Positions 4,252 to 59,256 of a stretch of 64,000 nt of DNA are shown here, one piece after another (within the stretch, counting starts at the first letter, position 1; each line of letters opens with the position of its first letter). The notes under the pieces were generated by a model. The model was not told the DNA's origin and did not search any database. It saw only the letters and a list, made by a program, of their open reading frames with translations. The DNA is from an uncultured Gammaproteobacteria bacterium. GTDB lineage: Bacteria > Patescibacteriota > Patescibacteriia > UBA9570 > JBBTWU01. Both the position numbers and the translations under genes were made by a program. The DNA lies in NCBI GenBank assembly GCA_964364425.1, contig CAYIMB010000001.1, forward strand, positions 6,941 to 70,940, written 5' to 3'.

Positions 4252-4258
4252 CTAGCGT

Positions 4259-5011: not shown

Positions 5012-5026
5012 TGGTATACTATCCAC

Positions 5027-6886: not shown

Positions 6887-6902
6887 AACAGGACGACAGT
6901 CC

Positions 6903-7496
6903 TTAATCTATATTGTTTGGGCTGATTATGTGTCTGACCATACTGGCTAGGGCAAAGGCAATGGCTAGTCCAAAGGTGATTTCCGCAACACCCAGGACCC
7001 AGGGCCAGTTCATGAGGTAGACAATCAAGAGTAACAAACCTACCACTTCAAAAACAGTTTTGAGTTTTCCATATATGTTAGCCCCGAATTTTCGGTCAGG
7101 TAAATTTTTGCTTGGTACCAGAGAGAAAATTAAGCCAGTTAGAAGAAACACTAATTCAATTAACGCCAGCAAGGTAAAAATCCTGAGGTCTAAGACTTGC
7201 CAACCTAAAATCCAGAACAAGACAAGAAAGATCACTTTATCTGCAATGGGATCCAAGACAGCGCCGGCTTTGGTCACTTGGTTGCGTGAACGGGCTAATA
7301 CCCCGTCCAGTACGTCTGTAAAGTAGGCAGCAACCAGTAAGAAAGCCGTTGGAACCGCTTGTCCGGCTAAAGCAAAGTAGCCAATGGGGACAACCATGAT
7401 CAAACGGAAGACGGCCAAGCCGTTGGGCGTAATCCACAAGGGGAGGGCATCTGCCAGCGGTTTAAACAGTTGATCTTTTGATTTTAATATGTCCAT
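6903..7496 (-). CDS. CDP-alcohol phosphatidyltransferase
   Basis: DG(x2)AR(x8)G(x3)D(x3)D motif (DVLDGVLARS...AVLDPIADK). The ORF-track start was GTG at 7505; the ATG lies at 7494-7496. Confidence 0.8.
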   Translation of the reverse strand: MDILKSKDQLFKPLADALPLWITPNGLAVFRLIMVVPIGYFALAGQAVPTAFLLVAAYFTDVLDGVLARSRNQVTKAGAVLDPIADKVIFLVLFWILGWQVLDLRIFTLLALIELVFLLTGLIFSLVPSKNLPDRKFGANIYGKLKTVFEVVGLLLLIVYLMNWPWVLGVAEITFGLAIAFALASMVRHIISPNNID

Positions 7497-7513
7497 ACTG
7501 CACACTGTAGCAT

Positions 7514-9210: not shown

Positions 9211-9262
9211 GGGAACAGTCTAGACAGATGCGTAAAGATACGCAACTTGGTATACTGTCCCC

Positions 9263-9679: not shown

Positions 9680-9684
9680 TTGGT

Positions 9685-24732: not shown

Positions 24733-24736
24733 AGAG

Positions 24737-26242: not shown

Positions 26243-26243
26243 A

Positions 26244-26894: not shown

Positions 26895-27838
26895 AAGCTT
26901 GCAAAGAGTTGAGTTACTAGGGCAATCATGGCCACCACCCAGCCCATACCCAGGAGTGCCGGTACTCTGAGCAAGCGCATTTTAGCCATAGAAGACTCCA
27001 CCAAGGCAATGAGGATAGCTAAGATGAACACTTTTCCTAACCAGAGGACTGTCCCAAGCAACACTGCGCTTAACGTCCACTCCGTAGCCATGCCCCAAGG
27101 CACAACTAAGCTAGCCAAAATGCTCAACATCACCGTGAGTTTAGTCATACTCCCAATCTCCATTAAGGCCAGGTTTTTTCCGGAATTTTCCAAGATCATG
27201 GCTTCATGTACCATGGTGAGCTCTAAGTGTGTGGTTGGGTTATCAAAGGGATAACGGGCATTTTCCGCCAGGGTGATGAGGAAAAAAGACAAGAAGACCA
27301 AAATCAAGGCTGGGTCTAACCAGGCATGTGGGGTGCCTAAGACATGACTGATTATTTCCCCAGGGTAGGTAGATCCTCCGGTCAAGGCTAAAGCAAACAA
27401 GGCAGTAATAAAGACTGGTTCAGCCAAGGCGCTGATCATGGCCTCTCTAGAAGAACCCATGCCTCCAAAGGTCGTCCCTGCGTCCAAGCCGGACAGGACC
27501 AAGAAAGCAGTACCCAGGACCAGAATAAAACCGACAAAAATCATATCAGCCTGAGCGCCAAGGTTGGTGACGTTTGGAAGTAAAAATGCAGCTGTTGCGG
27601 TGGTTCCAAACACCATATATGGGGCGAGTTTAAACACCCAGGAGGTCACATCAGACACCACAGCATCTTTACGGATAAATTTGAGAATATCTCGGTATCC
27701 CTGGAGCAAGGGAGCGCCAACGCGTCCTTGCAGACGAGCTTTGACTTTACGTATAACCCCCGTGACCAGAGGCGCAACGGTCAGCAGCAGCAGACCTTGA
27801 GCGAGAGAAATCAGAATGGCTTGTGTTGTCTGAGTCAT
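26891..27838 (-). CDS. NuoH / HycD / HyfC-like membrane subunit
   Basis: N-terminal GxIRKxKARLQGRxGxPLLQxYRDxLK signature. Confidence 0.85.
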   Translation of the reverse strand: MTQTTQAILISLAQGLLLLTVAPLVTGVIRKVKARLQGRVGAPLLQGYRDILKFIRKDAVVSDVTSWVFKLAPYMVFGTTATAAFLLPNVTNLGAQADMIFVGFILVLGTAFLVLSGLDAGTTFGGMGSSREAMISALAEPVFITALFALALTGGSTYPGEIISHVLGTPHAWLDPALILVFLSFFLITLAENARYPFDNPTTHLELTMVHEAMILENSGKNLALMEIGSMTKLTVMLSILASLVVPWGMATEWTLSAVLLGTVLWLGKVFILAILIALVESSMAKMRLLRVPALLGMGWVVAMIALVTQLFASL

Positions 27839-29925: not shown

Positions 29926-30464
29926 ACAGAGGTTGTTTTAGCGGCCAGACGGTCAACGGCAGCCAAGAGTCCGGCCAACAGATCTGAAGGGGTTGGTGGG
30001 TTTCCAGGAATCCAGATATCCACAGGCAAGACCGCATCCACGCCACCAACAATTCCGTAAGAACCCTTAAAAATACCACCGTCTTTAGCGTTATCTCCAA
30101 AAGCCACCACAATTTTAGGTGTTGGCATGGCGTTATACGCACGTTTTAAGGCCTCTTCCATATTTCGTGAGACCGGACCGCTGACTAACAACATATCTGC
30201 GTGCCTAGGCGAAGCAGCCACATGAATACCATAGCGTTCCATATCATAGTAGGGGTTGGCCAACATATTCACTTCAACCTCTTCCGCGTTGCTGGAACCC
30301 GGATCAACCTCACGGATATGCAAAGAACGGCCAATCAGCCGTTTTATTTTTTGACTTAACTCCCCACGCAGCAGTTCAATATCTTTTGGAACAGCGGCTT
30401 CCTGAGCGAATTTTTTTTTGGTCACTACCCCGTTTAAGAGGCTTTTTTTGAGCAACTGAAACAT
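29922..30464 (-). CDS. NuoB / HycG-like small subunit lacking all four [4Fe-4S] cysteine ligands
   Basis: Conserved NuoB scaffold (ASPRHADMLLVSGPV...YNAMPxPKxVxAFG...GGVDxxLPVDIWIPGxPP). The four Cys positions read P, S/A, N and N. Confidence 0.85.
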   Translation of the reverse strand: MFQLLKKSLLNGVVTKKKFAQEAAVPKDIELLRGELSQKIKRLIGRSLHIREVDPGSSNAEEVEVNMLANPYYDMERYGIHVAASPRHADMLLVSGPVSRNMEEALKRAYNAMPTPKIVVAFGDNAKDGGIFKGSYGIVGGVDAVLPVDIWIPGNPPTPSDLLAGLLAAVDRLAAKTTSV

Positions 30465-38150: not shown

Positions 38151-38159
38151 GTGGGAAGT

Positions 38160-41100
38160 ATGGAAAAAATCTTAGACGGTCTGAATTCAGCTCAAGCCGA
38201 AGCGGTGTGCCACCGGAATGGTCCATTGTTGTTGGTGGCCGGAGCGGGGACGGGAAAAACGACAGTCATTACCAGGCGCTTGGCCAAGCTCATTCAGGAT
38301 GGGGTGGCTACTCCTGATCAGGTATTAGCTCTGACCTTTACTGACAAGGCAGCGGGTGAGATGGAAGAGCGTATAGATACTTTGATGCCCTATGGGTATA
38401 CAGATTTATGGGTATCTACATTTCATTCTTTTGGAGAACGTTTGCTCCATGAGTATGGGCTGGACATAGGCCTGCCGCATCAATTCAAATTGTTGAATCA
38501 AACGGATCAATGGTTACTCTTGCGCGAACATATTGAGGAATTGGGCCTGGAGTACTACCGGCCAAAAGGCAATCCGACCAAATTTGTTGAAGCGTTATCT
38601 CACCATTTTTCTCGTTTGAAAGATGAGATGATTACACCGGAGCAATATGTGGAATATGCAGAAAAGTTGTGTCTAAACTTAGACGCAGAAGTTGCGCGGA
38701 CAAAACAAACCTTAACAGATGAAGAACGGGCAGGTGCAGATGAAGCCATACGTATTCGCGAGTTAGCCCACGCCTACCATGTATATCAACAGTTATTACT
38801 GGCAGAAAACGCTTTAGACTTTGGTGATCTGATTTTCCATACCGTGCAGTTACTAAAAAAACGTCCGGCTATTTTAAAAAAATTGCGTGATCAATTTCGC
38901 TATATTATGGTAGATGAGTTTCAAGATACCAACTTGGCACAATACGAGCTGATCAAGTTAATTGCTTCACCTAAAAATAATTTGGTGGCCGTGGGTGATG
39001 ATGACCAATGCCTCCCGGTAGGAACAAAAGTAACCATCCCCGGCGGAGAAAAAAGTATTGAGAGCATTAAATCTGGCGATGTGGTTTTGACTGCAGTCGG
39101 GAAAGGAAGTTTGAGCACTTCCGTAGTTTTAGCCTGTTCAAAAAAGAAAAAGACTTCAAGATTTCTTACATTTCAACTAGAAGATGGTCATTCATTAACT
39201 GCTACAGATAATCACAAGCTTTTTTGTTACGTCCCAAGAATTGATCAAGGGGGTAGAACCTATGTTTATGTGATGCATAGTTCATTGTTTGGGTGGAGGA
39301 TTGGAATAACAAATGATTTGGCCACCAGGTTATCTTTAGAAAGGGGTGCTGATAAAATTATAGCTTTACGCTCATTTTCTGATCCAGATGAAGCGAAGTT
39401 CTATGAAATACTGTGGGTTCTGCGTTATCAAATTCCGCCTGTTTGTTTTAAAGAAAGAGAGGGGGTAGCCATTAAGGGGGAATGGTTGAGTCGTCTATAC
39501 CATGAAATAGACACTGAAAAGAATATACAAAAGTTAGCAAAAGATCTGAGGGTAGATTTGCATAGTCATCATGTTGGTTTAGATAGTGTCAATAGAGGTC
39601 GGGGCAAGCGGCTAAAGATTCATTTTAAACTTTGCTATAGAAGTCATAAAATAAAAGGGAGGAATGATTCGATTCTATCTCAACCCCTTGTTCAACATAT
39701 AGTTGAGTTCCAAACTTCCCAATTAGACATCATCCGGAAATTAAAGTTAGCGGGAATTGAAACTCAGAAAGCTAAAAAAGGAATCAGGATCAGAAAGGCA
39801 GGTGTTGACTTAACTGTATTAGAAAACTTTGCACAAAAGGTTGCAGAGATTACAACAGGCTACATTGAATACTCTTTCGATGTCGGGAGAGTAAATATAC
39901 AATCTAAAAAAGCTTTATGTATGCCAGCAGGGAATGTTGTGATTGGTCATTTTTTGCCCGTACAAGTTAAAAATCATATTGAGTATAAAAAGGTTATTGC
40001 TATTCAAGAAAAAGTTACTACGGAGAATGTATATGATTTGGAGATTGCCAGAAGTCACAACTTTTTGGCTAATGGAGTAGTAGTACATAATTCGATTTTC
40101 AAATGGCGTGGAGCATCCGTGTCTAATATTCTGCACTTCCAAAAAGATTTTCCAAACCTGAAGCAAATCGTGCTCACAGAAAATTACCGGTCAGGGCAAC
40201 CTATTCTGGATTTAGCCTACCAATTCATTCAGCAAAATAATCCGGACCGTTTGGAATCAAAACTAGAGATTCAAAAACGGTTGGTGGCTAAGTCAGGACG
40301 TGAGGGAAAGGTATTTCATTTGCGCAGTATGACCGGAGAAGGTGAGGCGCATACTATTGTGAGAAAGATTGCGGAGTTGAAACAGGAACATCCGGACTGG
40401 ACCTGGAGTGATTTTGCCGTTTTGGTTAGGGCGAATGATCATGCGGAAAGTATTTTACCGTTGTTGGAACGGGCCAACATTCCTTACCAGTATGTAGCTT
40501 CCACGGGATTATTTTTGAAACCGCTTATGTTGGATATTTTGTCGTATTTGCGCGTGGTGGAAAATGTGCATAACAATTTGGCTTTGTACCGCGTGCTGAC
40601 CATGCCCATGTGGAAGCTGGCGGCAGAAGATGTGATGGCAGTGTTGAATTACACTGCCCGCAAACCGGTGGGGATGTTGGACACGCTGAAGAACTGTCGA
40701 GCCATTGGGGGCCTGAGCGTTCCAGCGTGTGTGACCATAGAACGCATGCTTTCACTCATGGCCCAGCACTCCCAATTGGTGCGTGAAAAACATGCGGGAG
40801 AGGCGGTCTTGAAGATTGTTCAAGACGTTGGATTGATGAAATGGATGACGGATCAAGAGGAACAGAAGGCGGCACAACATTTGGTCTTACTCAACCAATT
40901 ATTCCAACTGATCGCCTCGTTTGAACAAAGTGCTGAGGATAAGCGGGTTAAATACTTTCTACACAACGTAGATTTAATGCTTGAGGCTGGGGATGCTGGT
41001 GCACTGAAAGTAGATATTGATGAAGGGCCGGAATCAGTTAAAGTCATGACGGTACACGCTTCCAAGGGTCTGGAGTTTCAAGCCGTATTTGTCACCAATC

Positions 41101-42182
41101 TAGTGGATAAACGATTTCCTTCAGTTGGTCGGAACGAACCTATTTCTGTTCCGGATGATTTGCTCCAAGAAATTTTACCCACCGGGGATGCGCATCTTCA
41201 AGAGGAACGTCGTTTATTTTATGTTGCCTGTACCCGGGCTAAACAATACTTATTCCTTACCAGTGCGGAAGATTACGGTGGTATGCGGAAGAAAAAACCC
41301 AGCCGGTTTTTAGTTGAATGTGGATTGGCTGAAGTCAAAGCTGAACCAACCGGCGTGGTGGCCTTTGCAGCGCAAGATCAGGCCATTCCTGCGGAACGCG
41401 CTGTGGTGTTGTCGCATGCCCCTGAGACGTTTAGCTTCTCCCAATTTGAGGCCTATGAACGCTGTCCCTGGCAATACCGGTACCGGTTTGTCCTCAAAGT
41501 ACCGGCCCCCGGAAACTACTCAGCTTCCTTTGGTCGTAGCGTGCATGACACCTTGTTGGAGTTTTTTAAACGTGTGCGGTCTAACACAGAAGCCTCACAG
41601 GGCACGTTGTTTGGTCCGGCGGAAAAACTTACGCTTCCCACAGACAAAGACCTCCTCCAAATTTTTGAAGACAAATGGCAGTCTGATTGGTATGCTACAC
41701 CCAAAGCTGAACAAGAATATAAAGAAGCCGGTCGTAACGCCTTAAAAGAGTTTTACAACATCCATCATCAGGCCTGGCCCAAGGTGAAGTATTTGGAAAA
41801 AGGATTTTCTTTGCGTCTAAAAGACGTCACGGTGAAAGGTAAAATTGACCGGGTAGATGGAGTGGGAGATTCAAAGGTTCAGGTCAATGTGGTGGATTAT
41901 AAAACTGGGCGGTTCAAAGAAAAGAAAGACTTCAACCAGTTGTTTATTTACGCCATGGCCATTCAGGACGTGTTTAAAGAAGAACCGCAACAGGTTGGAT
42001 ATTATTTTATTGAAGAAAATAAACCTTTGGATAAACCGGTGACTCAGCAGGCCTTAGACAAAACGCGTGATTGGGTGCTGAACCTAGCTGAGCAAATTCT
42101 GTCCGGCGACTTTACGCCCTCCCCAGGCCAGCAATGCCAATTTTGTGATTACCGCTCCATTTGTGAATTTAGAGCGGTTTAA
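38160..42182 (+). CDS. UvrD/PcrA-family helicase fused to a C-terminal Cas4/AddB-like PD-(D/E)xK nuclease with a Cys cluster; interrupted by an intein
   Basis: Walker A motif GAGTGKT, motif II DEFQD, motif III VGDDDQ/SIFKWRGA split by the intein, C-terminal VVDYKTG nuclease motif and C...CxxCx5C cysteines. The ATG at 38160 is preferred over the GTG at 38151. Confidence 0.85.
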   Translation: MEKILDGLNSAQAEAVCHRNGPLLLVAGAGTGKTTVITRRLAKLIQDGVATPDQVLALTFTDKAAGEMEERIDTLMPYGYTDLWVSTFHSFGERLLHEYGLDIGLPHQFKLLNQTDQWLLLREHIEELGLEYYRPKGNPTKFVEALSHHFSRLKDEMITPEQYVEYAEKLCLNLDAEVARTKQTLTDEERAGADEAIRIRELAHAYHVYQQLLLAENALDFGDLIFHTVQLLKKRPAILKKLRDQFRYIMVDEFQDTNLAQYELIKLIASPKNNLVAVGDDDQCLPVGTKVTIPGGEKSIESIKSGDVVLTAVGKGSLSTSVVLACSKKKKTSRFLTFQLEDGHSLTATDNHKLFCYVPRIDQGGRTYVYVMHSSLFGWRIGITNDLATRLSLERGADKIIALRSFSDPDEAKFYEILWVLRYQIPPVCFKEREGVAIKGEWLSRLYHEIDTEKNIQKLAKDLRVDLHSHHVGLDSVNRGRGKRLKIHFKLCYRSHKIKGRNDSILSQPLVQHIVEFQTSQLDIIRKLKLAGIETQKAKKGIRIRKAGVDLTVLENFAQKVAEITTGYIEYSFDVGRVNIQSKKALCMPAGNVVIGHFLPVQVKNHIEYKKVIAIQEKVTTENVYDLEIARSHNFLANGVVVHNSIFKWRGASVSNILHFQKDFPNLKQIVLTENYRSGQPILDLAYQFIQQNNPDRLESKLEIQKRLVAKSGREGKVFHLRSMTGEGEAHTIVRKIAELKQEHPDWTWSDFAVLVRANDHAESILPLLERANIPYQYVASTGLFLKPLMLDILSYLRVVENVHNNLALYRVLTMPMWKLAAEDVMAVLNYTARKPVGMLDTLKNCRAIGGLSVPACVTIERMLSLMAQHSQLVREKHAGEAVLKIVQDVGLMKWMTDQEEQKAAQHLVLLNQLFQLIASFEQSAEDKRVKYFLHNVDLMLEAGDAGALKVDIDEGPESVKVMTVHASKGLEFQAVFVTNLVDKRFPSVGRNEPISVPDDLLQEILPTGDAHLQEERRLFYVACTRAKQYLFLTSAEDYGGMRKKKPSRFLVECGLAEVKAEPTGVVAFAAQDQAIPAERAVVLSHAPETFSFSQFEAYERCPWQYRYRFVLKVPAPGNYSASFGRSVHDTLLEFFKRVRSNTEASQGTLFGPAEKLTLPTDKDLLQIFEDKWQSDWYATPKAEQEYKEAGRNALKEFYNIHHQAWPKVKYLEKGFSLRLKDVTVKGKIDRVDGVGDSKVQVNVVDYKTGRFKEKKDFNQLFIYAMAIQDVFKEEPQQVGYYFIEENKPLDKPVTQQALDKTRDWVLNLAEQILSGDFTPSPGQQCQFCDYRSICEFRAV
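39009..40091 (+). mobile_element. Intein (361 aa) in helicase motif III
   Basis: Begins with Cys directly after VGDDDQ, has a block-B TxxH (TATDNH), and ends VVVHN followed by Ser. The extein halves rejoin to the canonical GDDDQSIFKWRGA. Confidence 0.8.
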
Positions 42183-42864: not shown

Positions 42865-42986
42865 ATGTGACTTATACTGTTTTTTTGGGTATATCAGGCC
42901 TGACCCCTTGATTTTATATCGATTTTCAGCTATTATCTCTGGCCATCATGGAAGGAATTCCGTGCTCTGCAACCCAGGAGACTCCC

Positions 42987-43244
42987 ATGTTGCAACCCCT
43001 CATGTTTCTTGTCCTCGTCATGGGGCTGTTCGCCGCCCCGTCCACCGCCAACGCCCGGCCGCCCAAGCACCACCAGGCGGCGGCGAGTCACCACGTCCGC
43101 GCCTACGGCCACCACCGCCCGCCCCCGACCCGCATCTACGGCATGCACACCCCGCTGCCCATCCCGCCCGCGGGCATGAAGTGGTACTACAAGGACGGGT
43201 CCAAGGGCCACTACTGGTACCTGGCCCCGGCGCCGGCCTACTAG
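42987..43244 (+). CDS. Small secreted protein (85 aa), paralog of the C-terminus of 42221-42814, encoded with near-100 % GC3 codons
   Basis: AGGAG Shine-Dalgarno 6 nt upstream of the ATG. Signal peptide MLQPLMFLVLVMGLFAAPSTANA, His-rich middle, C-terminal GMHTPLPIPPAGMKWYYKDGSKGHYWY. Confidence 0.6.
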   Translation: MLQPLMFLVLVMGLFAAPSTANARPPKHHQAAASHHVRAYGHHRPPPTRIYGMHTPLPIPPAGMKWYYKDGSKGHYWYLAPAPAY

Positions 43245-43375
43245 GGCCAGCCTGTCCAGCCCACATCCCGCTGCACCTTGCCATGTTGCGGGTCGAATGG
43301 AGCTTCTTCGGAAGCACCTTCGGCCCGCACCTCGTCTCTCTTTTCAAATATACAACAAACCTTTATCATGCCTCC

Positions 43376-45577
43376 ATGCAAGACCAAGTCATTCTCAAAT
43401 TACGCTTTCCCTTTGAAGACGCTTTGCGAGACCCAGTTGAACGTGTGGGAAAATTTGAGTCATTTTTTTACAACGTGTTTCATTTGATGCTCAAGCGCGG
43501 TGAAGTCATGTCATTTGAAATTGTGCAGATTAACGGGATCATGGATTTTTATATTGTGGCACCACGTATTTTGGTTCCCGCAGTACAATCTTTTCTGTAC
43601 GGTGTGATGCCAGATGCTTCTATTGATGAAGTGCAAACCTATGAACACCTTGATGCACTTCCATCTCAAGCCGTTGGGTTTCACCCGCGCTTAAAAGGAA
43701 GTGAAGCCTTCAGCTTACGATCATTCCGTTCCTCAGCCGGGGATCCGTTAAACGCATTTTTTAATTTACTGTCGGCTGTCCCTTCAACCGACGCAGTGTT
43801 TTATCAAGTCTTAGTCCGCACCATTGACGAGTCTTTAACTGGAGAAGAGGGGACAAGTGTGTATGGCTTTACAGAAAAACAAGAAACGGAAGAAGCGAAA
43901 CCAAAGTTCAGCACCACGGTGCGTATGTTGTACTTTCCTCAAGACGCTGAAGATATTAAAACGCGTAGCTTGTCATTTGAAAACGTGTTTAGCCCATTCT
44001 CTACAGAACACAATCATATTGAAGTACAAACCGTGGCCAACATTCAACAGTTTGTAGATGAATATTTCCGGCGCACAGAACAGGCGACTGGTGTGTTTAC
44101 CACAGAAGAAATCGCGTCCTTTTTCCACTCACCGGATCCAGCCGCAAAAATCCGTGGTGTGAACTGGTTGTATTCAAGACGAGCTGAACCACCTATGAAT
44201 CTGCCTTCCTTGAAGAACTGTGAGGAAGATGAATTGTCCATGTTTGGTGAAACCAACTTTCGCGGTCAGCAATTAGAATTTGGAGTGAAGCGGGAAGACC
44301 GTAGACGGCATTTGTATATTGTGGGTAAGAGCGGTACGGGTAAATCGAAGTTATTGGAGAAACTGATTAGTGACGATATTAAGGCAGGTAAAGGGGTGTG
44401 CGTCATAGACCCGCACGGTGACTTGATTCAAGCCTTGTTGTATCACATTCCGCAAGAACGCGTAGAGGATTTGGTGTATTTTAATCCTGCGGACTTGGAT
44501 TTTCCCATTGCGTTTAATCCCATTGCCAACGTGACCCGAGAGTTCAAGCAACAGGTGGCGCAAGGCATGATTGAAATTTTCAAGAAATTTTTTGGTGCGG
44601 ACTGGAGTCCCAAGATTGAACACGTGTTCCGCTTTACTGTTTTGGCCTTGTTGGATTATAAGAAAGCCACGTTGATGGGTATGCAGAAAATGTTGACCGA
44701 CCGACCATACCGCCAAAGTGTCATTTCAGAAATTCAAGATCATGTGGTTAAAAAATTCTGGGCCAATGAATTTTCTAGTTGGTCAGAAAAATTTGATAAT
44801 GAAGCTATTGTGCCTTTGGTGAACAAATTAGGACAGTTTTTGGCAAATGAGATGGTGCGCAACATAGTCTCACAAACTCAAAATAAGATTGACTTTGATG
44901 ATATTATGAATAACCAACGGATTCTGTTGGTTGAATTATCTAAAGGAAAATTGGGTGAAGAGAATTCTGCTTTACTTGGTTCTTTGATTATCACCAAGAT
45001 TGAACAAGCTGGTATGGCACGGGCCTTTGTTTCGGCTCAAGAACGTAAGGACTTCTACCTGTATGTAGATGAGTTCCAAAATTTTGCCACCAAAACGTTT
45101 GATAACATTTTGTCTGAGGCCCGTAAGTATAAACTCAACCTCACCATCTCACATCAATACTTAGGACAACTCTTAAGCTCTACCCGTGAGACGGTGTTTG
45201 GAAACGTTGGTTCTATTATTACTTTCCGTTTAGGCGCAGAAGATGCCGGATATATTGCCAATGAGTTTACTCCACGCTTTACGGCCTATGATGTGATGAA
45301 CCTATCTGTACGAGAAATGTACGTCAAAATGTCCATTGCTGGTGTAGTGGCGCCGCCTTTCTCGGCTCGTACCATGAATGTAGAAGACCCAGAATTTAAT
45401 GAGACCATGCACAATCGTCTGATTGAAGCTTCCCGGAATAAGTATGCAACCCCACTGGCTGAGGTGGAAGCTGAGATTGCCGGAATTGATCAGATAGTTG
45501 TCAGTTCTAATGGAACGGGCAAGCTGGCGGCGCAAGCGGAGTCAACAGATACCGTATTTGAGGCACCTCTGGTGTAA
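43376..45577 (+). CDS. VirD4/TraG-like (AAA_10 superfamily) coupling-type ATPase with no N-terminal TM anchor (alternative start at 43283)
   Basis: Walker A motif VGKSGTGKSKL, VIDPHGD, Walker B motif LYVDEFQNF, and the TISHQYLGQL motif (Q-S/H-x-x-QL). No hydrophobic N-terminal helices. Confidence 0.6.
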   Translation: MQDQVILKLRFPFEDALRDPVERVGKFESFFYNVFHLMLKRGEVMSFEIVQINGIMDFYIVAPRILVPAVQSFLYGVMPDASIDEVQTYEHLDALPSQAVGFHPRLKGSEAFSLRSFRSSAGDPLNAFFNLLSAVPSTDAVFYQVLVRTIDESLTGEEGTSVYGFTEKQETEEAKPKFSTTVRMLYFPQDAEDIKTRSLSFENVFSPFSTEHNHIEVQTVANIQQFVDEYFRRTEQATGVFTTEEIASFFHSPDPAAKIRGVNWLYSRRAEPPMNLPSLKNCEEDELSMFGETNFRGQQLEFGVKREDRRRHLYIVGKSGTGKSKLLEKLISDDIKAGKGVCVIDPHGDLIQALLYHIPQERVEDLVYFNPADLDFPIAFNPIANVTREFKQQVAQGMIEIFKKFFGADWSPKIEHVFRFTVLALLDYKKATLMGMQKMLTDRPYRQSVISEIQDHVVKKFWANEFSSWSEKFDNEAIVPLVNKLGQFLANEMVRNIVSQTQNKIDFDDIMNNQRILLVELSKGKLGEENSALLGSLIITKIEQAGMARAFVSAQERKDFYLYVDEFQNFATKTFDNILSEARKYKLNLTISHQYLGQLLSSTRETVFGNVGSIITFRLGAEDAGYIANEFTPRFTAYDVMNLSVREMYVKMSIAGVVAPPFSARTMNVEDPEFNETMHNRLIEASRNKYATPLAEVEAEIAGIDQIVVSSNGTGKLAAQAESTDTVFEAPLV

Positions 45578-45604: not shown

Positions 45605-47359
45605 ATGTCCACTTGCCAAAATTGTCATACGAATTTTCCTATCACGCAGCGTGAAGCGGACTTTCACGCCCGCTTATCTGTTCCAGCCCCAACTTGGTGT
45701 TTTGAATGCCGTTTGCAACGGAAAATGATGTTCCGGAATTATCAAAACCTATCTCGTCAGAAGTGCTTGAAGTGTGGGAAAGAAATAATTTCCATGTTTT
45801 CTGAACAGAGCCCAGTCACGGTCTGGTGTTCAGATTGTTTTGTTTCGGACACTTGGGAGGCCCAAGACTTTGCGTTGGAGGTTGATTTCTCAAGACCATT
45901 TTTATCTCAAGTCCGTGAACTGATGCAGACTGTTCCTCAACAACATTTGAACCAAAAGCAGAATGAAAATAGTCCTTGGAACAACCACCAAAGTCAGAGT
46001 AAAAATTGTTACATGAATTTTGGTGGAATAGCTAATGAAGATGGAGCTTACAACCATTGGTCTGGCTTCACAGCCAACTGTTTGGATAACTATGCCCTGC
46101 TGAATTCACAGGTCTGTTATGAAACAAACTTAGTGACTGAATGTTACCAAACATTTTTTTCCCATTTTGTTTTTAACTCGCATGAAGTGTATTTTTCTGA
46201 AAATTGTTTTAACTCTTCCAACATCATTGGCTGCTTCAATTTAAAAAGTAAATCGTATCATATTATTAATCAACCGGTGGCTCCGGATGAATTTAGACAA
46301 GAATTGAAGAAACTCCGCAGTTACGCCTACCAGCAAGAGTTCAAACAACGGTTTTGTGCTTTCAAGCTCACTCAACCATATCCTGCCGTTCACCATGTGG
46401 CCACCACTGATTCTACCGGCGACTATTTGGTCCGGAGCCATAATAATGTCAACATTTTTACTGCGGTTGAAGTTCAAAATTGCACTAATGCCTTCAGTGT
46501 TGGCTTTATAAAGGATTGTATGGATATGTTTTCCAGTAGTTTGGGGACGGAGTTATGTTATGAGTATGGTGGTGATGGCCAGAAATGCTATAAGGTACTT
46601 TTTTCTTTTGATTGTGAACAATCTCAGGACTTATTCTATAGCTATCATTGTTTTAATTGCTCTGATTGTTTTGGCTGCGTTGGTCTGAAAAATAAACAAT
46701 ATTGTATTTTGAACAAGCAATATAGCAAAGAGGAGTACCAAGCGTTGCTGCCAAAATTAAAACAGCACATGGGTAATCTCCCATATACAGATGCCAAGGG
46801 GAGAGTCTATCCGTTTGGAGAATTTTTTCCGGGAGAACTCTCGTCTTTTCCCTATAATGACAGCATTGCACAAGATTTTTATCCCCTCACGGCTGAACAA
46901 GCTCAAACACAAGGCATGAGATGGCGGCCAGAAAAATCAGCTCAGTATACTCCAACCGTTCAAGCCACTAACTTACCAGATCAGATTGACCAGGTACCAG
47001 ACTCCATCTTAAAAGAGATTATAGCCTGCGAACATGAAGGAACCTGTAGTGACCACTGCACCCGGGTGTTTCCTATTATTCCCATGGAGCTGGAATTTTT
47101 GAGAACCTACGGGATGCCCCTGCCTCACCTCTGCCCAAATTGTAGACACATCAGGCGGGTGAAACAAAAGAACTCTATGAAACTGTGGGAACGAGCATGC
47201 CAATGCGCTGGCACCACTAGCCAAAGCAAAGCCTACCAGAACCAGGTTGCTCATGATCATAGGGCTTCCGCCTGTCCGCGCGTGTTTTCCACCACCTACG
47301 CCCCAGAACGGCTGGAGATGATTTACTGCCAAGAATGCTACCAGGCGGAAGTGGTCTAG
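45605..47359 (+). CDS. Cysteine-rich repeat protein flanked by zinc-ribbon-like CxxC pairs
   Basis: CxxC pairs at both termini. The centre is a ~11-13-aa periodic C-[YF]-x-N/x ladder (NCYMNF, NCLDNY, VCYETN, ECYQTF, NCFNSS, GCFNLK, NCTNAF, DCMDMF, LCYEYG, KCYKVL, HCFNCS, DCFGCV). Confidence 0.55.
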   Translation: MSTCQNCHTNFPITQREADFHARLSVPAPTWCFECRLQRKMMFRNYQNLSRQKCLKCGKEIISMFSEQSPVTVWCSDCFVSDTWEAQDFALEVDFSRPFLSQVRELMQTVPQQHLNQKQNENSPWNNHQSQSKNCYMNFGGIANEDGAYNHWSGFTANCLDNYALLNSQVCYETNLVTECYQTFFSHFVFNSHEVYFSENCFNSSNIIGCFNLKSKSYHIINQPVAPDEFRQELKKLRSYAYQQEFKQRFCAFKLTQPYPAVHHVATTDSTGDYLVRSHNNVNIFTAVEVQNCTNAFSVGFIKDCMDMFSSSLGTELCYEYGGDGQKCYKVLFSFDCEQSQDLFYSYHCFNCSDCFGCVGLKNKQYCILNKQYSKEEYQALLPKLKQHMGNLPYTDAKGRVYPFGEFFPGELSSFPYNDSIAQDFYPLTAEQAQTQGMRWRPEKSAQYTPTVQATNLPDQIDQVPDSILKEIIACEHEGTCSDHCTRVFPIIPMELEFLRTYGMPLPHLCPNCRHIRRVKQKNSMKLWERACQCAGTTSQSKAYQNQVAHDHRASACPRVFSTTYAPERLEMIYCQECYQAEVV

Positions 47360-51285: not shown

Positions 51286-54011
<2,726 letters not shown>

Positions 54012-54025
54012 TACGGCTGATAGTC

Positions 54026-54586
54026 ATGGGAGGTTATACTTGGCCACAACTTATCCTTGGATCGCTCTGGTTTATTTTACCTATTGGCTTGGCTAACATG
54101 GCCCCGGTGCTCTTTCGTTCGGCCATGAAGTTTTTGGCTAAACCAATAGACGGTGGCCGCCTGGTTATGGGCAGGCCGTTATTTGGTTCACACAAAACTT
54201 GGCGCGGATTGATATTTGCTACTGGAGCCGGGGAAATTATTTTTTTGATGCAACTTGGGATCATTGTGACCTTTCCAGATGTGAGGCACATCACCCTGTT
54301 TGATTATTTTAGCGTTCCCTTATGGACTGGGTTCATTCTTGGGTTTGGTGCCATCTTTGGCGACTTATTTAAGAGTTTTGTGAAGCGGCGGGTGAGTGTC
54401 AAACCTGGAGAACGCTGGTTTCCTTTTGATCAAATCGATTATCTGCTGGGAGGGCTGATTGCTATTTCTCTAGTGAATCCCGTGGCCTGGTTTGTGTGGG
54501 TTGCTGTTTTGGTCGGGGGGTTGATTCTCCACTTGTTGGTCAACAATATTGGTTATGCTTTGGGCTTGAAAGATACACGCTGGTAG
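54026..54586 (+). CDS. CDP-archaeol synthase-like (CarS/DUF46 family) membrane protein
   Basis: KPIDGGR...G...KTWRG signature and polytopic topology. Confidence 0.6.
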   Translation: MGGYTWPQLILGSLWFILPIGLANMAPVLFRSAMKFLAKPIDGGRLVMGRPLFGSHKTWRGLIFATGAGEIIFLMQLGIIVTFPDVRHITLFDYFSVPLWTGFILGFGAIFGDLFKSFVKRRVSVKPGERWFPFDQIDYLLGGLIAISLVNPVAWFVWVAVLVGGLILHLLVNNIGYALGLKDTRW

Positions 54587-54593
54587 GCGCTGC

Positions 54594-54622
54594 TTGACTC
54601 CACGCATTCCGTTCTGTATAGT
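54594..54622 (+). promoter_or_regulatory. Promoter TTGACT-N17-TATAGT upstream of secE
   Basis: Hexamers read directly from the sequence. Confidence 0.5.
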
Positions 54623-54630
54623 GTCAACAG

Positions 54631-54653
54631 AAATCCCGCCGCGGGGATTTTTT
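54631..54653 (+). terminator. Terminator-like hairpin plus T-tract (AAATCCCGCCGCGGGGATTTTTT) between the promoter and secE
   Basis: GC-rich stem followed by six T. It may terminate the upstream gene or act as a leader attenuator. Confidence 0.45.
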
Positions 54654-54674
54654 AAGATCGAATATTGATTTGCC

Positions 54675-54905
54675 ATGGATCAACCAGTCCCAACCTCAAT
54701 CCAGCCCCGTGTCACCATACGGACCCTACCTTCGTATTTTAAGACCTCCTGGCAAGAGTTGAAGAAAGTGTCTTGGCCAACTCGCAAGGAAACTTGGCGC
54801 AACACCTGGGTCGTGATCTTGGTCAGCGTGTTTTTTGGCCTCTTTTTGGGGGCTTTGGATTACGCCTTAAATCGATTGCTTGAATATATTTTGTCCTATG
54901 CCTAA
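54675..54905 (+). CDS. secE: Preprotein translocase subunit SecE
   Basis: 76 aa, single TM helix, conserved WPTRKE region. Confidence 0.85.
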   Translation: MDQPVPTSIQPRVTIRTLPSYFKTSWQELKKVSWPTRKETWRNTWVVILVSVFFGLFLGALDYALNRLLEYILSYA

Positions 54906-55443
54906 ACAAACAGGGGAACAAGGTCGTCGTTGGTACGTCATTCATACCTATTCCGGATACGAAGAAAACGTGGCACACAACTTGAAACAACGTATTGAAT
55001 CCATGGATATGGAGGACAAAATTTTTGATGTTCTCATTCCAACGGAGAAAAAAATTAAAATCCGCAACGGCAAACGCCGCGTGGTGATTGAGAAAATTTT
55101 TCCAGGCTACGTCTTGGTGAATATGATTGTAACGGATGATTCATGGTATGTGGTGCGAAATACACCTAATGTGACTGGATTTGTAGGAAGTGGAACCACT
55201 CCAACTCCAATTGATGATAAAGAAGTAGAAGGCTTGAAGAAACGAATGGGTGCTGAAGAACCAACGTATAAAATTGACGTCAACACTGGGGATACGGTAC
55301 GGATCACTGATGGTCCGTTCAAAGACATGGAGGGGAAAGTGTCAGAGGTGGATGAAACCCGTGGTAAGGTCAAAGTCATGGTGTCTATGTTTGGCCGTGA
55401 GACTCCGGTAGAACTTGATTCACTCCAAGTAAAGAAAATCTAA
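54898..55443 (+). CDS. nusG: Transcription antitermination factor NusG
   Basis: NGN domain ([12 protein letters not shown]) and KOW domain. The ATG at 54898 overlaps secE by 8 nt. Confidence 0.9.
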
Positions 55444-55445
55444 AT

Positions 55446-55868
55446 ATGGCAAAAAAAGTTAAGGTTCAGATTAAATTACAAATCCCAGCCGGCAAGGCTA
55501 ACCCAGCACCTCCAATTGGTCCTGCTTTAGGTCAACACGGTGTGGCTATTCAGGAATTTTGTACCAAGTTTAATGCAGAAACCAAAGACAAGATGGGAGA
55601 CATATTGCCTACGGTGATTACGGTATATGAAGACCGGTCTTTCACCTTTGTGGTGAAGACTCCTCCAGCAGCTGAGTTGTTAAAAAAGGCAGCCAAGATT
55701 CAAAAAGGTTCAGGTAAGTCGTTGACTGAAAAGGTCGGCAGCGTGACCAAAGCGCAAATCAAGGAAATAGCTGAAATGAAAATGCCTGACCTGAATGCCA
55801 ATACCATTGAGGCAGCCATGAAGATTATTGAGGGCACAGCACGCCAAATGGGAATCACGGTCAAGTAG
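55446..55868 (+). CDS. rplK: 50S ribosomal protein L11
   Basis: Conserved L11 sequence ([20 protein letters not shown]). Confidence 0.95.
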
Positions 55869-55939
55869 CTAGAAGTTAAATTGAAATTAATTAACGTGGG
55901 AGGGCTTGAGGCCCGCTTGAACCACTAAACCAGAAACAT

Positions 55940-56617
55940 ATGCCAAGATCAAAACGGTACAAAGCGCTCGTTGAAAAGATAGAAAAGGGAAAGGTCTACC
56001 CAGTCCAAGAAGCGCTTGCTGTGTTGAAAGAAAGTCCGGTCAAGTTTGATGCTGCCGTGGAAGTTCACATGCGGTTAGGAATTGATCCAAAAAAAGGTGA
56101 ACAAATGGTACGTGGTACCGTGGTGTTGCCTCATGGATCAGGCAAAACCCGCAAGATTGCCGCTTTTGTCTCTCCTGAAAAAGAAGCTGAAGCCAAGGCA
56201 GCTGGTGCTGATATTATAGGAACTGCTGACGTGATTGAGAAAATTAAATCTACAGGAAAGATAGACTTTGATATTGCTGTAGCTACTCCTGATATGATGA
56301 AGAAACTAGCACCCATTGCCAAGAACTTGGGTCAAGCGGGTGTGATGCCAAACCCCAAGACTGAAACGGTGAGCCCCAACGTGACGAAAATGATTACTGA
56401 ACTGAAAGGTGGAAAAGTGGCGTATAAAAACGATGACACTGCCAACGTCCACCAAATTGTTGGTCGCATAAGTTTTCCCGCTGATCACTTGGCAGAAAAC
56501 GTCAAAACATTTGTTGATGTCGTCAAAAAGGCTAAACCAGCTGACTCTAAGGGAACCTACGTTAGATCCATCACCCTGACCACCACTATGGGGCCAGGTA
56601 TTGCCATTAGCGTCTAG
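55940..56617 (+). CDS. rplA: 50S ribosomal protein L1
   Basis: Conserved L1 sequence, 225 aa. Confidence 0.95.
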   Translation: MPRSKRYKALVEKIEKGKVYPVQEALAVLKESPVKFDAAVEVHMRLGIDPKKGEQMVRGTVVLPHGSGKTRKIAAFVSPEKEAEAKAAGADIIGTADVIEKIKSTGKIDFDIAVATPDMMKKLAPIAKNLGQAGVMPNPKTETVSPNVTKMITELKGGKVAYKNDDTANVHQIVGRISFPADHLAENVKTFVDVVKKAKPADSKGTYVRSITLTTTMGPGIAISV

Positions 56618-56620
56618 CCT

Positions 56621-57724
56621 ATGGCACTGGGAGCATTTCCATCCCAGTATATCCGCAGGCTGATTGAGGAAGGTGCTGTTATTGGTGCCAGTCAAACCAA
56701 TATTCAACCTTCTTCTTTGGATTTGACCTTGTCTGAAGAGGCGTGGCGCATGCCTGGCATATTTTTACCGCGGCCAGGGGAAACCATTCATGACATTATC
56801 AAAACTGGCGGGGGAGAGCCCTGGGATTTATCCAAGCCCCTGCCTTTGCGCGGAATCTTTTTTGTGCGCTTGCGTGAGTCTTTGAAATTACCTTCAACGG
56901 TGATTTTTGCTTACGCTAACAACAAAAGCTCAACCGGGCGTATTAATTTACAAACTCGTTTGATTTGTGACGGAGTGAGTCAGTTTGACAAAGTGCCTCG
57001 TGGCTACGCCGGTGAGTTGTGGTTAGTGATTAGTCCGCGCTCTTTTAATATTCAAATGCATCCAGGGGCAGCTTTGAATCAACTCCGTTTCTTTAATTCT
57101 GATACGCGCCTGAACTACACAGATCATTTGGCCTTGTATGAGTATTTCAACTTACTCTGGAATCCAGATCATACTCCTATCTCACGGGATGAAGTCCATT
57201 TCGATCTGCACGGGGGAATCACCATGTCGGTGAACTTAGACCAAGACGTCATAGGATACTCCGCCACACAGAATCCAAATGTGACTCTGGATATTTCACG
57301 CTCTGATCATGATCCACATGATTTTTTCCGTCCACTCCACCGACCAGAAAATGGGCGCTTGATGTTGTTGCGTGATGAATTTTATATTCTTTCCACCATA
57401 GAACAGATTGCTGTTCCGCCGGAATTTTCTGTAGAGATGGTAGCGTATGATCCATCTAAGGGTGAATTCCGTAGCCATTATGCCGGTTTCTTTGATCCGG
57501 GCTTTGGGTTTGGAGAGAAGGGTGAGGTCAAGGGCACAACGGCTGTTTTAGAGGTATATCCGCATGATAACGACTTCTTTTTGCGTCATGGGCAACCAAT
57601 CTGTAAAATGGTGTATGAGCGTTTGGCTACGTTTCCGGAGTTGGTTTATGGCACCGGCAACCTGAAGTCGAATTACCAGAAACAGTCAGGACCTCGTCTC
57701 AGTAAATATTTTAAATCAGCTTAA
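56621..57724 (+). CDS. dcd: 2'-deoxycytidine 5'-triphosphate deaminase, long form (DCD family)
   Basis: N-terminus resembles the dCTP deaminase/dUTPase fold, and the ~360-aa size is typical of long-form DCD. Confidence 0.6.
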   Translation: MALGAFPSQYIRRLIEEGAVIGASQTNIQPSSLDLTLSEEAWRMPGIFLPRPGETIHDIIKTGGGEPWDLSKPLPLRGIFFVRLRESLKLPSTVIFAYANNKSSTGRINLQTRLICDGVSQFDKVPRGYAGELWLVISPRSFNIQMHPGAALNQLRFFNSDTRLNYTDHLALYEYFNLLWNPDHTPISRDEVHFDLHGGITMSVNLDQDVIGYSATQNPNVTLDISRSDHDPHDFFRPLHRPENGRLMLLRDEFYILSTIEQIAVPPEFSVEMVAYDPSKGEFRSHYAGFFDPGFGFGEKGEVKGTTAVLEVYPHDNDFFLRHGQPICKMVYERLATFPELVYGTGNLKSNYQKQSGPRLSKYFKSA

Positions 57725-57819
57725 ATATCTCGATCGCGAGGCTCAGAGAGTGCATGCTTTGACGGAGCCCCAATCACCGTCACGCACGCATCTCTCTTGC
57801 GCCTCGCTCTCAAAATTCT

Positions 57820-59256
57820 ATGTCAGATTGGCCAGTCTACTTTAAAGAGAACTTGATTGTTGGAAATCTTGACTCCGGAGTTGGAGTCGCTACGCTTTGG
57901 TCTCCGCGGGAAGCTATTGCCAAGGGTCTAGACCCTAAGACCTATTGCGTGATTGGTCAGTTGTATGCCAATGATGGGATTAATCCCATGATTCGGAATA
58001 TCATGGCCAGGCCGCAAATCAGAACACTGGTGCTATGCGGTCAGGATAAAATTGGTTCAGCCGATTCTTTGGCTCATTTGATTAACAACGGCATAGATGA
58101 AAAAGGGAAGGTGGTAGGCAAGCCGGAGTCAAAAGTGGAAAAAGAAATTCCACGGGAAGCGGTGGAGAAATTCCGGCAGAATGTGAAGCTGGTGGATATG
58201 CGTGGAGTGTTTGATACGGTTAAAATCCAGACCGCCATTAATGAGGTGTCTCAAGACAATACGGCGTTTGCAGAACCACAATTATTCCCGGAGCCGGAGA
58301 TTTCCACTGACCGGTACCCAACAGATGCTTCCACCATCAAAATTCGGGGAAAGTTTGTTGGCGACGTGTGGCTGCGTCTACTCTGGCACATCATGCGGTT
58401 TGGGGCAGAAAAACAGTCACATCACGGGACGAACCAGAAAGAGTTGTGGAATGTAGTCACTGTCATAGAGGAAGAAGATCCGACTCATATCAAATGGTCG
58501 CCGTGGTTTAATTTCACACAGGAACATTTTGAAGGGTATAAGCCGCAAGTGATGACTAAAGAGAAAATTCCTTCGTTGGAATATACCTACGGTCAACGCC
58601 TGAGAGATCATGACGGGATTGACCAGATTGCTTCCATTAAAGAAAAGCTCAAAAAAGAGCCGTTCAGCCGGCGGGCTGTGGGCGTGACTTGGAATGTGCA
58701 GTTGGATGATTCCAGCACCCATCCACCATGTTTAGATATTGTGCAGTGTGTGGTTCAAGATGAACTGTTGTTGATGAATTGTTACTTCCGTTCCAATGAC
58801 ATGTTTAGAGCTTGGCCGGAAAACGCTTTGGCTTTGCGCACCATGCAAAAAGAAATTGCAGACGAACTGGGAATCATGTTGGGTTCTTTGACCATTGTTT
58901 CAGCTTCTGCACATGTGTACGAAGAAAGTTACGCGGCGATCAAGGAGATGTTGAAGGAGTATTATCCTAAGGCCCTTGATTTTTGTGAATTTGATCCACG
59001 AGGTAATTTTGTCATCTCAGTCTCAAACGGAACTATCAACTTGATTCAGATGAATCCCACCGGATCAAAAATTGGAACGTACTCAGGAAAGACTGCCATG
59101 CAAGTCTATCAAAAGCTGGTTGAAGATTATGCGGTATCTATTATTGGACATGCCTTAGATTTAGGCGGAGAGTTACAAAAAGCTGAGATGTGTTTGCGTT
59201 TAGGTATTCAGTATACGCAGGACCGCCCAGTGCCGTTTCAGGATTTGAAAAAGTAG
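57820..59256 (+). CDS. thyA: Thymidylate synthase (ThyA family) with an uncharacterised N-terminal extension of about 175 aa
   Basis: HPPCLD catalytic-Cys motif, YFRSNDMF...WPEN, SAHVYEE, and an upstream GTNQKELWNV region. Confidence 0.7.
   Translation: MSDWPVYFKENLIVGNLDSGVGVATLWSPREAIAKGLDPKTYCVIGQLYANDGINPMIRNIMARPQIRTLVLCGQDKIGSADSLAHLINNGIDEKGKVVGKPESKVEKEIPREAVEKFRQNVKLVDMRGVFDTVKIQTAINEVSQDNTAFAEPQLFPEPEISTDRYPTDASTIKIRGKFVGDVWLRLLWHIMRFGAEKQSHHGTNQKELWNVVTVIEEEDPTHIKWSPWFNFTQEHFEGYKPQVMTKEKIPSLEYTYGQRLRDHDGIDQIASIKEKLKKEPFSRRAVGVTWNVQLDDSSTHPPCLDIVQCVVQDELLLMNCYFRSNDMFRAWPENALALRTMQKEIADELGIMLGSLTIVSASAHVYEESYAAIKEMLKEYYPKALDFCEFDPRGNFVISVSNGTINLIQMNPTGSKIGTYSGKTAMQVYQKLVEDYAVSIIGHALDLGGELQKAEMCLRLGIQYTQDRPVPFQDLKK

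Follow-up and report, generated by a model that had tools for sequence, protein, structure and literature searches.

A CarS-family gene adjoining secE-nusG in a Patescibacteria genome and its possible role as a substitute for CdsA in lipid salvage

Results

The carS locus

The stretch of DNA analysed here (64,000 nucleotides, positions 6,941 to 70,940 of contig CAYIMB010000001.1, assembly GCA_964364425.1; hereafter the window) carries a gene, carS, for a predicted integral-membrane CTP:lipid-phosphate cytidylyltransferase of the CarS family (PF01864). The initial annotation had placed a CarS-like open reading frame (ORF) at 54026-54586, and an ATG-to-stop frame occupies exactly 54026..54586 on the plus strand, encoding a protein of 186 aa with five predicted transmembrane (TM) helices (window CarS). 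The KPIDGGR...KTWRG signature attributed to it is present as AKPIDGGRLVMGRPLFGSHKTWRG (aa 38-61 of the protein, nt 54137-54208 of the window), with more spacer residues than the original shorthand implied. Upstream lies an intein-containing gyrB (51315..54011, plus strand), which was recognized by its Pfam GyrB domains and by Intein_splicing (PF14890, aa 458-662). Between its stop codon and the carS start there are 14 nt; the two genes share a strand and are probably co-transcribed. Directly downstream, the reported proximity to the secE-nusG cluster was confirmed, as the ORFs of secE-nusG-rplK-rplA (54675..56617, plus strand) follow; they are genomic context and have no part in the lipid function. 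The separate CDP-alcohol phosphatidyltransferase gene noted earlier at 6903-7496 is also real: a GTG start gives 6903..7505 on the minus strand, and the ATG at 7496 gives the shorter version.

Family assignment, fold and conserved residues

Window CarS is a PF01864 member by every sequence and structure criterion applied. The Pfam CarS-like profile matched it with 105.6 bits (E 3.9e-30, cut-off 22) over residues 8-186, which correspond to profile positions 3-175 of 175, i.e. the full length. The bacterial CdsA family (PF01148), which might have been the better match if the proposed assignment were wrong, reached 22.6 bits, below its cut-off of 24, and only locally, over residues 56-126. No dolichol- or phytol-kinase family of Pfam matched at E<=1. 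The NCBIfam equivalog NF003114 (CDP-2,3-bis-(O-geranylgeranyl)-sn-glycerol synthase) gave 130.2 bits, under its cut-off of 148, compared with 193 for CarS of A. pernix and 135.5-152.6 for relatives belonging to the same subtype as window CarS (see below), one of which (P0009, 152.6) passes the cut-off. The members of the subtype thus straddle the NF003114 threshold, which explains their inconsistent public names.

Structural comparison led to the same family and upheld the CarS-family claim. In a sequence search of solved structures only A. pernix CarS was significant (5GUF_A, E 1.1e-12). The AlphaFold2 model of window CarS, built on a 28-sequence alignment, had a pLDDT of 93.9 and a pTM of 0.86 and contained five long helices (residues 6-29, 59-82, 101-122, 134-150 and 155-178). 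Searched against the PDB with Foldseek, the model had 5GUF as its only significant match (E 2.9e-6, TM 0.67/0.77, 29% identity); the runner-up had an E value of 0.6, and CdsA structures were absent from the Foldseek matches.

Residue conservation was followed in an alignment of 16 canonical archaeal CarS sequences (from Aeropyrum, Sulfolobales, Thermofilum, Archaeoglobaceae, Methanobacteriaceae, Thermoplasmatales, Aig-, Micr- and Aenigmarchaeota, among others) and, from fetched loci, 61 bacterial and 26 Woese-/Nanoarchaeal sequences. The residues common to all three groups are P19, N24, P40, D42, G54, K57, T58 and G61 in the first half of the protein, and G112, D113, F118, K120, R121, R122, G128, D135, Q136, (D138), H169 and N173 in the remainder. 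Window CarS possesses every one of them. The presumed CTP- and metal-site polar residues D42, K57, T58, G61, G112 and D113 match the consensus of the 16 canonical CarS, and so do K120, R121, R122, D135, Q136 and D138. By homology with 5GUF, we infer that the conserved residues would sit in the cytoplasmic loops and helix ends which bind CTP, Mg2+ and K+.

A subtype common to Candidate Phyla Radiation bacteria and DPANN archaea

The view that such an enzyme is rare in bacteria was not borne out for the Candidate Phyla Radiation (CPR). A word-indexed protein search returned 303 homologues of window CarS, the named ones coming from Kerfeldbacteria, Gribaldobacteria, Parcubacteria, the "Patescibacteria group", Woesearchaeota and Nanoarchaeia, and many already carrying the NCBI/JGI label "CDP-archaeol synthase". 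When one genome per GTDB species was scanned with profile guidance, at least 535 genomes proved to encode a relative, many of them Patescibacteria; among the best 80 of these, Patescibacteria orders were mixed with DPANN archaea. With HMMER, all of 1.84 billion representatives were searched, and 3431 clusters (50% identity) were obtained at E<=1e-3 and 576 at E<=1e-30. Occurrence on this scale goes well beyond chance.

The CPR and Woese-/Nanoarchaeal sequences form a subtype with features that have no counterpart in canonical CarS. These are H56, W59 and R60 (HKTWRG vs GKTxEG), the invariant Q76, Y94 inside an insertion, and W-x-P-F-D-Q-I/L-D in place of the canonical A-P-L-L-D-Q-L-D. On average, the subtype is ~31% identical to canonical CarS, and within it the bacterial members are ~40% identical to the archaeal ones; the closest archaeal relatives, from Woese-/Nanoarchaeia, are 43-46% identical to window CarS. 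A neighbour-joining tree separated canonical CarS from the subtype in 199/200 bootstraps, the two sets having been retrieved with different baits, so that intermediates may exist. With its 182 columns, this tree has no power to order the internal branches or to tell which way CPR/DPANN transfer went, and the support for a monophyletic clade of CarS encoded between gyrB and secE was low (46/200). Two long-branch CarS-type genes were found on MFD contigs of metagenome-assembled genomes (MAGs; L027 and L033, 280 and 704 kb), whose ORFs look Arg/Ala-rich, unlike those of CPR, and whose neighbours appeared by eye to include a Lon-like protease and a UspA-like protein. The subtype may thus also occur outside CPR and DPANN.

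Host and conservation of gene order

The window contains aminoacyl-tRNA synthetases, an F-type ATPase operon, a coupling-protein-like ATPase of a type IV secretion system, and intein-bearing gyrB and uvrD. It is a typical Patescibacteria (CPR) segment, and the host is a bacterium of this group near Ca. Kerfeldbacteria. Its gene order, uvrD-pheS-pheT-gyrB-carS-secE-nusG-rplK-rplA-...-tmk-dut-gatB, is seen again in assemblies of Ca. Kerfeldbacteria and other Patescibacteria, secE-nusG-rplK-rplA being identified there by Pfam (SecE/NusG/L11/L1), and the gyrB-carS adjacency is kept in 14 bacterial loci. In relatives with the same gene order, NusG is 78-85% identical, L1 52-64%, CarS 44-54% and PheT 30-35%. 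These identities, together with the synteny, indicate that carS is vertically inherited and constrained in this lineage, and that neither recent import nor faulty assembly accounts for it.

Coupling to CDP-alcohol phosphatidyltransferases

The product of the 6903..7505 gene is PgsA-like (PF01066 CDP-OH_P_transf, 85.2 bits), its best NCBIfam match being pgsA TIGR00560 with 79.6 bits, under the cut-off of 109.1. It also matches a hidden Markov model (HMM) of the CDP-OH transferases adjoining carS in other genomes (E 8e-26). In the window this gene is unlinked to carS, ~46.5 kb away, and its product is the probable consumer of the CDP-lipid.

To describe the neighbourhoods of carS in relatives, ORFs were called in 90 loci, five neighbours per side were clustered by BLASTP, and representatives were annotated with Pfam and NCBIfam. 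After three duplicates had been dropped, 61 bacterial and 26 archaeal loci were left, with 6-10 kb visible on each side of carS; these counts are approximate, as the domain was taken from record titles, a few of which are placeholders or belong to probably mis-binned records. A PF01066 gene was present within five genes of carS in 23/61 bacterial and 16/26 archaeal loci. In 19 loci it was the immediate neighbour on the same strand, and in 17 of these 19 the two genes overlapped by 1-11 bp or were separated by at most 7 bp. A PF01066-type gene directly precedes or overlaps carS in such relatives, and predicted fusions occur as well, namely CDP-OH_P_transf-CarS, DUF212(divergent PAP2)-CarS and PAP2-CarS. 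Overlapping operons and fusions with enzymes of this kind firmly tie the CarS-type protein to a predicted role in making CDP-lipid for head-group attachment. Two further arrangements recur: a PIP/AIP-synthase-like transferase, a PHP phosphatase and CarS in Saccharimonadales-type loci, and phosphatidylserine (PS) decarboxylase, PssA, DUF212 and CarS in Woese-/Nanoarchaeal loci.

The fusion proteins joining CarS to CDP-OH_P_transf, DUF212 or PAP2 are P0251, P0264, P0363, P0247, P0366, P0380 and P0274, and another protein, P0361 (380 aa), combines an N-terminal CarS with a C-terminal half of ~200 aa without domain assignment. A radical-SAM protein of ~478 aa stands beside CDP-OH transferase/CarS genes in seven loci, mostly from DPANN (e.g. 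L061, 2297-3733, as well as L018, L043, L065 and L066). A conserved multi-TM protein of 150-170 aa without a Pfam match is encoded at most three genes away from carS; in 11/12 loci its gene is on the opposite strand.

Acyl-lipid and prenyl-ether genes around carS

The implication that the gene points to archaeal lipids found little support, as in relatives carS sits among bacterial acyl-lipid genes (PlsC, FakA/DegV, PlsY, DAG kinase, patatin, UppS). Acyl-lipid genes stand beside carS in 19/61 bacterial and 0/26 archaeal loci. One arrangement, H+-PPase - PlsC - PlsC - PaaK/FadD-like adenylating enzyme - (patatin-like phospholipase) - CarS - trigger factor, was found in seven loci, one of which (L052) ends early at a contig end; a Kerfeldbacteria locus (L078) has a variant order. 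The presence of H+-PPase beside carS in several operons agrees with a clustering of steps that release PPi. Bacterial loci also carry FakA-DegV fusions, in one case (L048) with PlsY, or diacylglycerol kinases (DAGK_cat) near carS. In four loci UppS adjoins carS, which recalls the uppS-cdsA pair of E. coli. No canonical CdsA was detected near carS by a CdsA-signature regular expression (...H-G-G-x-D-[RK]-x-[DE]) applied to all ORFs of the 90 loci, and phmmer with E. coli CdsA matched only the CarS-like ORFs themselves in these loci.

The enzymes expected for archaeal-type lipids were also looked for. No candidate for GGGPS, DGGGPS or G1PDH was found in the 64-kb window by reading the translations, by Pfam searches with 21 unassigned or notable ORFs and by motif searches, and no recurrent neighbour cluster of these kinds was seen in the 61 bacterial loci. 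Crude regular expressions found a DGGGPS-type motif in 1/61 bacterial loci (L048) and a GGGPS-type motif in 0/61, the latter being a weak negative. Locus L048 is part of a CPR MAG (CAZDCT010000002.1, stretch 3854-11713), where acyl and archaeal-type genes are mixed in an operon-like row: within 8 kb there are DegV, an AIPS-like transferase, PHP, CarS, FakA/DegV, PlsY, a GGR-family reductase and a DGGGPS-like UbiA. Judging from this gene content, the lipid pathway of the CPR bacterium that carries L048 may be genuinely mixed.

Discussion

A possible replacement of CdsA in lipid salvage

We consider it probable, at roughly 60%, that window CarS does the job of CdsA, i.e. that it is a CTP:phosphatidate-type cytidylyltransferase which acts in bacterial lipid salvage and feeds the PgsA-like enzyme. 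The CarS-type enzyme would move CMP from CTP onto the phosphate of a phosphatidate-type membrane lipid with the release of PPi, and CDP-alcohol phosphatidyltransferases, here the PgsA-like protein encoded at 6903-7505, would use the CDP-activated lipid for the attachment of head groups. The substrate would most likely be ordinary diacyl (or lyso/acyl) phosphatidic acid, reassembled from lipids scavenged from the host, the CPR bacterium presumably lacking fatty-acid synthesis of its own, and the CarS-type enzyme would take the place held by CdsA in other bacteria. Among these predictions, CMP transfer, with CTP as donor, onto a lipid phosphate, giving CDP-lipid and PPi, is well supported by the family, the fold, the residues and the operon and fusion links. 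We also infer that the substrate is acyl and that CdsA is missing from the rest of the genome; window CarS is no CdsA family member, though it probably works as one.

An acyl-phosphatidate substrate is suggested because PlsC, PlsY, FakAB, DAG kinase and patatin recur around carS in relatives, because no CdsA was detected nearby, and because both the fatty-acid-based lipids of CPR (PMC7242380) and reconstructions for Saccharibacteria (PMC6031116) point in this direction. CPR cells were reported to have regular fatty-acid-based membranes and lysolipids, with no complete lipid pathway (PMC7242380), and a Saccharibacterium has been predicted to convert imported diacyl-glycerol-3-P by a 'putative phosphatidate cytidylyltransferase' (PMC6031116).

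Several observations weigh against an acyl-specific replacement of CdsA. The only CarS enzymes with known biochemistry favour isoprenoid substrates: CarS of A. fulgidus and membranes of M. thermautotrophicus prefer di-geranylgeranyl substrates to phosphatidic acid, and AfCarS fails to complement an E. coli cdsA mutant (PMC9385802, PMC4244643). The window holds no PlsC, PlsY, FakA or DAG kinase gene in its 64 kb, and the acyl context comes from relatives which are 36-43% identical to window CarS. The evidence for the absence of CdsA comes from the 64-kb window and, in the relatives, from 6-10 kb to either side of carS. Moreover, in L048 a DGGGPS-like UbiA, at 242 bits against a cut-off of 296, and a reductase of the GGR family, at 154.5 bits against 158.8, are encoded 3-5 kb from carS, and a Parcubacteria genome with GGGPS and DGGGPS has been reported (PMC7852524).

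The same reasoning may be extended, more tentatively and with somewhat less than an even chance of being right, to much of the CPR, where CDP-activation, a universal step in making phospholipids, would be performed within host-lipid salvage not by CdsA but by a CarS-type enzyme retuned to acyl (or mixed) phosphatidates. The enzyme would belong to the subtype that CPR have in common with Woese-/Nanoarchaeia, probably as a result of inter-domain transfer. The salvage route would lead from patatin, FakAB or an adenylating enzyme to PlsY/PlsC, then to CarS, and finally to PgsA, PIPS or PssA.

Alternative explanations

Other functions have to be weighed against a CdsA-like role. An enzyme that is not selective at all, and which would activate any acquired phosphatidate-like lipid regardless of tail (acyl or prenyl), linkage (ester or ether) and backbone (G3P or G1P), appears unlikely. 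Such promiscuity would explain why one subtype is common to CPR bacteria and DPANN archaea, where a single subfamily occurs in both domains with ~40% mean bacterial-archaeal identity. It is in line with the activity of M. thermautotrophicus CarS, which is independent of stereochemistry and of ether versus ester bonds, with the co-occurrence in L048 of PlsY and FakA/DegV on the one hand and of DGGGPS-like and GGR genes on the other, and with the bacterial G3P dehydrogenase and fatty-acid genes reported in Woesearchaeota (PMC8204110). However, the characterised CarS enzymes are selective for the lipid tail, and so are the characterised CdsA enzymes. The literal reading of the family name, that the protein is a genuine CDP-archaeol synthase and that the bacterium makes or scavenges di-prenyl glycerol-phosphate ethers for an archaeal-type or mixed membrane, seems more doubtful still. 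PF01864 membership and the 5GUF fold agree with it, as do the selectivity of characterised CarS enzymes for geranylgeranyl chains, the passage of some close relatives above the equivalog cut-off (P0009), the 43-46% identity to Woese-/Nanoarchaeal proteins, the DGGGPS-like and GGR-family genes of L048, and the Parcubacteria genome mentioned above. However, the window has no candidate for GGGPS, DGGGPS or G1PDH, the corresponding motifs are found in only one (DGGGPS) and none (GGGPS) of the 61 bacterial loci by crude regular expressions, and acyl-lipid genes accompany carS in 19 of them. Furthermore, window CarS scores under the equivalog cut-off, its subtype stands apart from canonical CarS in 199/200 bootstraps, and the lipids enriched with CPR are based on fatty acids (PMC7242380).

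Two further explanations were rejected. The CTP-transferase superfamily includes CTP-dependent lipid kinases, and UppS adjoins carS in four loci, which could indicate a polyprenol/dolichol-kinase-like enzyme acting on the undecaprenyl carrier lipid and not a glycerolipid cytidylyltransferase. This is very improbable, as the specific match is to PF01864 and no dolichol- or phytol-kinase family was matched at E<=1, while the recurrent overlap and fusion involve CDP-alcohol phosphatidyltransferases, which require CDP-lipid; in bacteria, uppS next to cdsA is in itself the classical layout. That carS lies on a mis-assembled or contaminating archaeal fragment could be suspected from the archaeal family name and from the unreliable titles of several MAG records, but it is contradicted by synteny and its probability is negligible: the gene begins 14 nt past a bacterial gyrB and is followed by secE-nusG-rplK-rplA, and the same order is present in many independent Patescibacteria assemblies, with NusG 78-85% identical.

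Comparison with known systems

Compared with canonical archaeal CarS (ApCarS 5GUF, AfCarS, NF003114), window CarS belongs to the same PF01864 family and has the same size and five-TM fold (TM 0.67/0.77). It shares K57/T58/G61 and has equivalents of ApCarS D100, K107-R109 and D122-Q123-x-D125, and the Mg2+/K+-dependent chemistry of CMP transfer is presumably common to both. The differences include the ~31% mean identity, the bootstrap separation and the NF003114 score (130 vs a cut-off of 148); in addition, the host is bacterial, and the neighbours in relatives are acyl-lipid and not prenyl-ether genes.

Bacterial CdsA (PF01148; T. maritima 4Q2E, E. coli b0175) is a member of the same superfamily with the same type of reaction, and the two may be alike in role, both acting upstream of PgsA/PssA-type enzymes. 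The likeness in sequence is a weak local match, K-T-W-x-G ... G-D-x-x-K-S-F-x-K-R (22.6 bits), E. coli CdsA having GKTWQG, and the likeness in gene order includes carS next to uppS in some CPR genomes, as in E. coli uppS-cdsA. CdsA-like genomic coupling, i.e. to PgsA/PssA-type transferases, acyltransferases and uppS, is seen in the relatives, whereas the window has only the unlinked PgsA-like gene. CdsA differs in having ~270-285 aa and 9 TM helices, with N-terminal and dimerisation domains, in contrast to the 186 aa and 5 TM helices of window CarS, which does not have the ...H-G-G-x-D-R-x-D signature and falls below the Pfam gathering threshold of the CdsA family.

The CarS of Woesearchaeota/Nanoarchaeia, encoded in PSD - PssA-like - DUF212(PAP2) - CarS operons, is of the same subtype as window CarS (43-46% identical) and shares with it the motif signature and, at the level of the subtype, tight coupling to a CDP-alcohol phosphatidyltransferase. 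It differs in its archaeal flanks (L15e, ATP-dependent DNA ligase, diphthamide synthase) and in its PssA-type partner with PS decarboxylase, PlsC, FakA and DAGK neighbours being found in 0/26 loci. Ca. Cloacimonetes of the FCB group (Villanueva et al. 2021, PMC7852524) are likewise bacteria with a nominally archaeal lipid-enzyme family, but they have GGGPS and DGGGPS and no CarS, and the use of CdsA was proposed for them (PMC7852524). The bacterium studied here is their mirror, as it has CarS without a visible GGGPS or DGGGPS in its 64-kb window.

Meaning for CPR membranes

The gene is already known in databases under its archaeal name. In the full-text literature searched, no paper discussing CarS in CPR was found, and the same holds for the subtype common to CPR and Woese-/Nanoarchaeia, its conserved placement and its embedding in acyl-lipid salvage operons; most subscription journals were outside this coverage, so that a prior description is possible. 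The label "CDP-archaeol synthase" given to the bacterial proteins by public pipelines is a probable annotation error, and, read literally, this name would wrongly predict archaeal lipids in hundreds of CPR genomes. On present evidence this is not a bacterium with an archaeal membrane, and the gene should be regarded as a tractable lead on how CPR build their membranes, since membrane building without fatty-acid synthesis is an open question in this group (PMC7242380). The CarS/CdsA pair has been treated as enzymes that "uphold the lipid divide" (PMC9385802). A vertically conserved CPR CarS linked to PlsC, PlsY, FakAB and PgsA-type genes bears on whether the class of substrate tracks the enzyme family. 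If the CPR-wide role of CarS in acyl-lipid salvage were true, the split between CarS and CdsA would not follow the bacterial/archaeal lipid divide, and this would define a concrete core, open to testing, of the pathway by which CPR build their membranes, which has long been unknown.

Other features of the window

The spacer between carS and secE (88 nt, 54587-54674) holds a sigma-70-like promoter match, TTGACT-17-TATAGT (54594-54622, plus strand), followed by a terminator-like hairpin, GC-rich and with a T-run (54634..54656, plus strand), both found by consensus scans. This order of promoter and terminator upstream of secE is odd and might represent a leader or attenuator. Rfam and tRNA scans of the 64-kb window gave no matches, the Rfam scan including this spacer.

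Two inteins occur within this one CPR window. With its intein GyrB reaches 898 aa, compared with 671-689 aa in syntenic relatives without the insert. The second is located in a UvrD/PcrA-type helicase with a C-terminal PD-(D/E)XK nuclease (38151-42182, plus strand), where an intein/Hint insertion covers aa ~284-647, and the protein measures 1343 aa against 967-986 aa in relatives.

A membrane-bound module resembling complex I or group-4 hydrogenases is encoded at 23143-30464 on the minus strand, which is unusual for a CPR genome. A 30-kDa+49-kDa fusion subunit of 529 aa is accompanied there by a small-subunit-like protein and several antiporter-like subunits; on visual inspection, the 49-kDa-like subunit has no N-terminal CxxC NiFe-ligand motif of the usual kind, and the module may be an Ehr/Mbx-like non-hydrogenase complex.

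Two proteins, one cysteine-rich of 584 aa (45605-47359, plus strand) and one of 282 aa (402-1250, plus strand), had no Pfam match. The TrwB/VirD4-like coupling ATPase at 42908-45577 has a TTG start and a Pro/Arg-rich, low-complexity N-terminus, and its start is probably over-extended. Finally, a nucleotide-salvage cluster at 56621-59256 (plus strand) contains a bifunctional-type dCTP deaminase (DCD_N+DCD_C, 367 aa) and a thymidylate-synthase-like protein of 478 aa with an MtrA-like N-terminal and a PterinBD-DUF4346 C-terminal domain, and a protein of the same architecture is present in a Kerfeldbacteria locus (L002).

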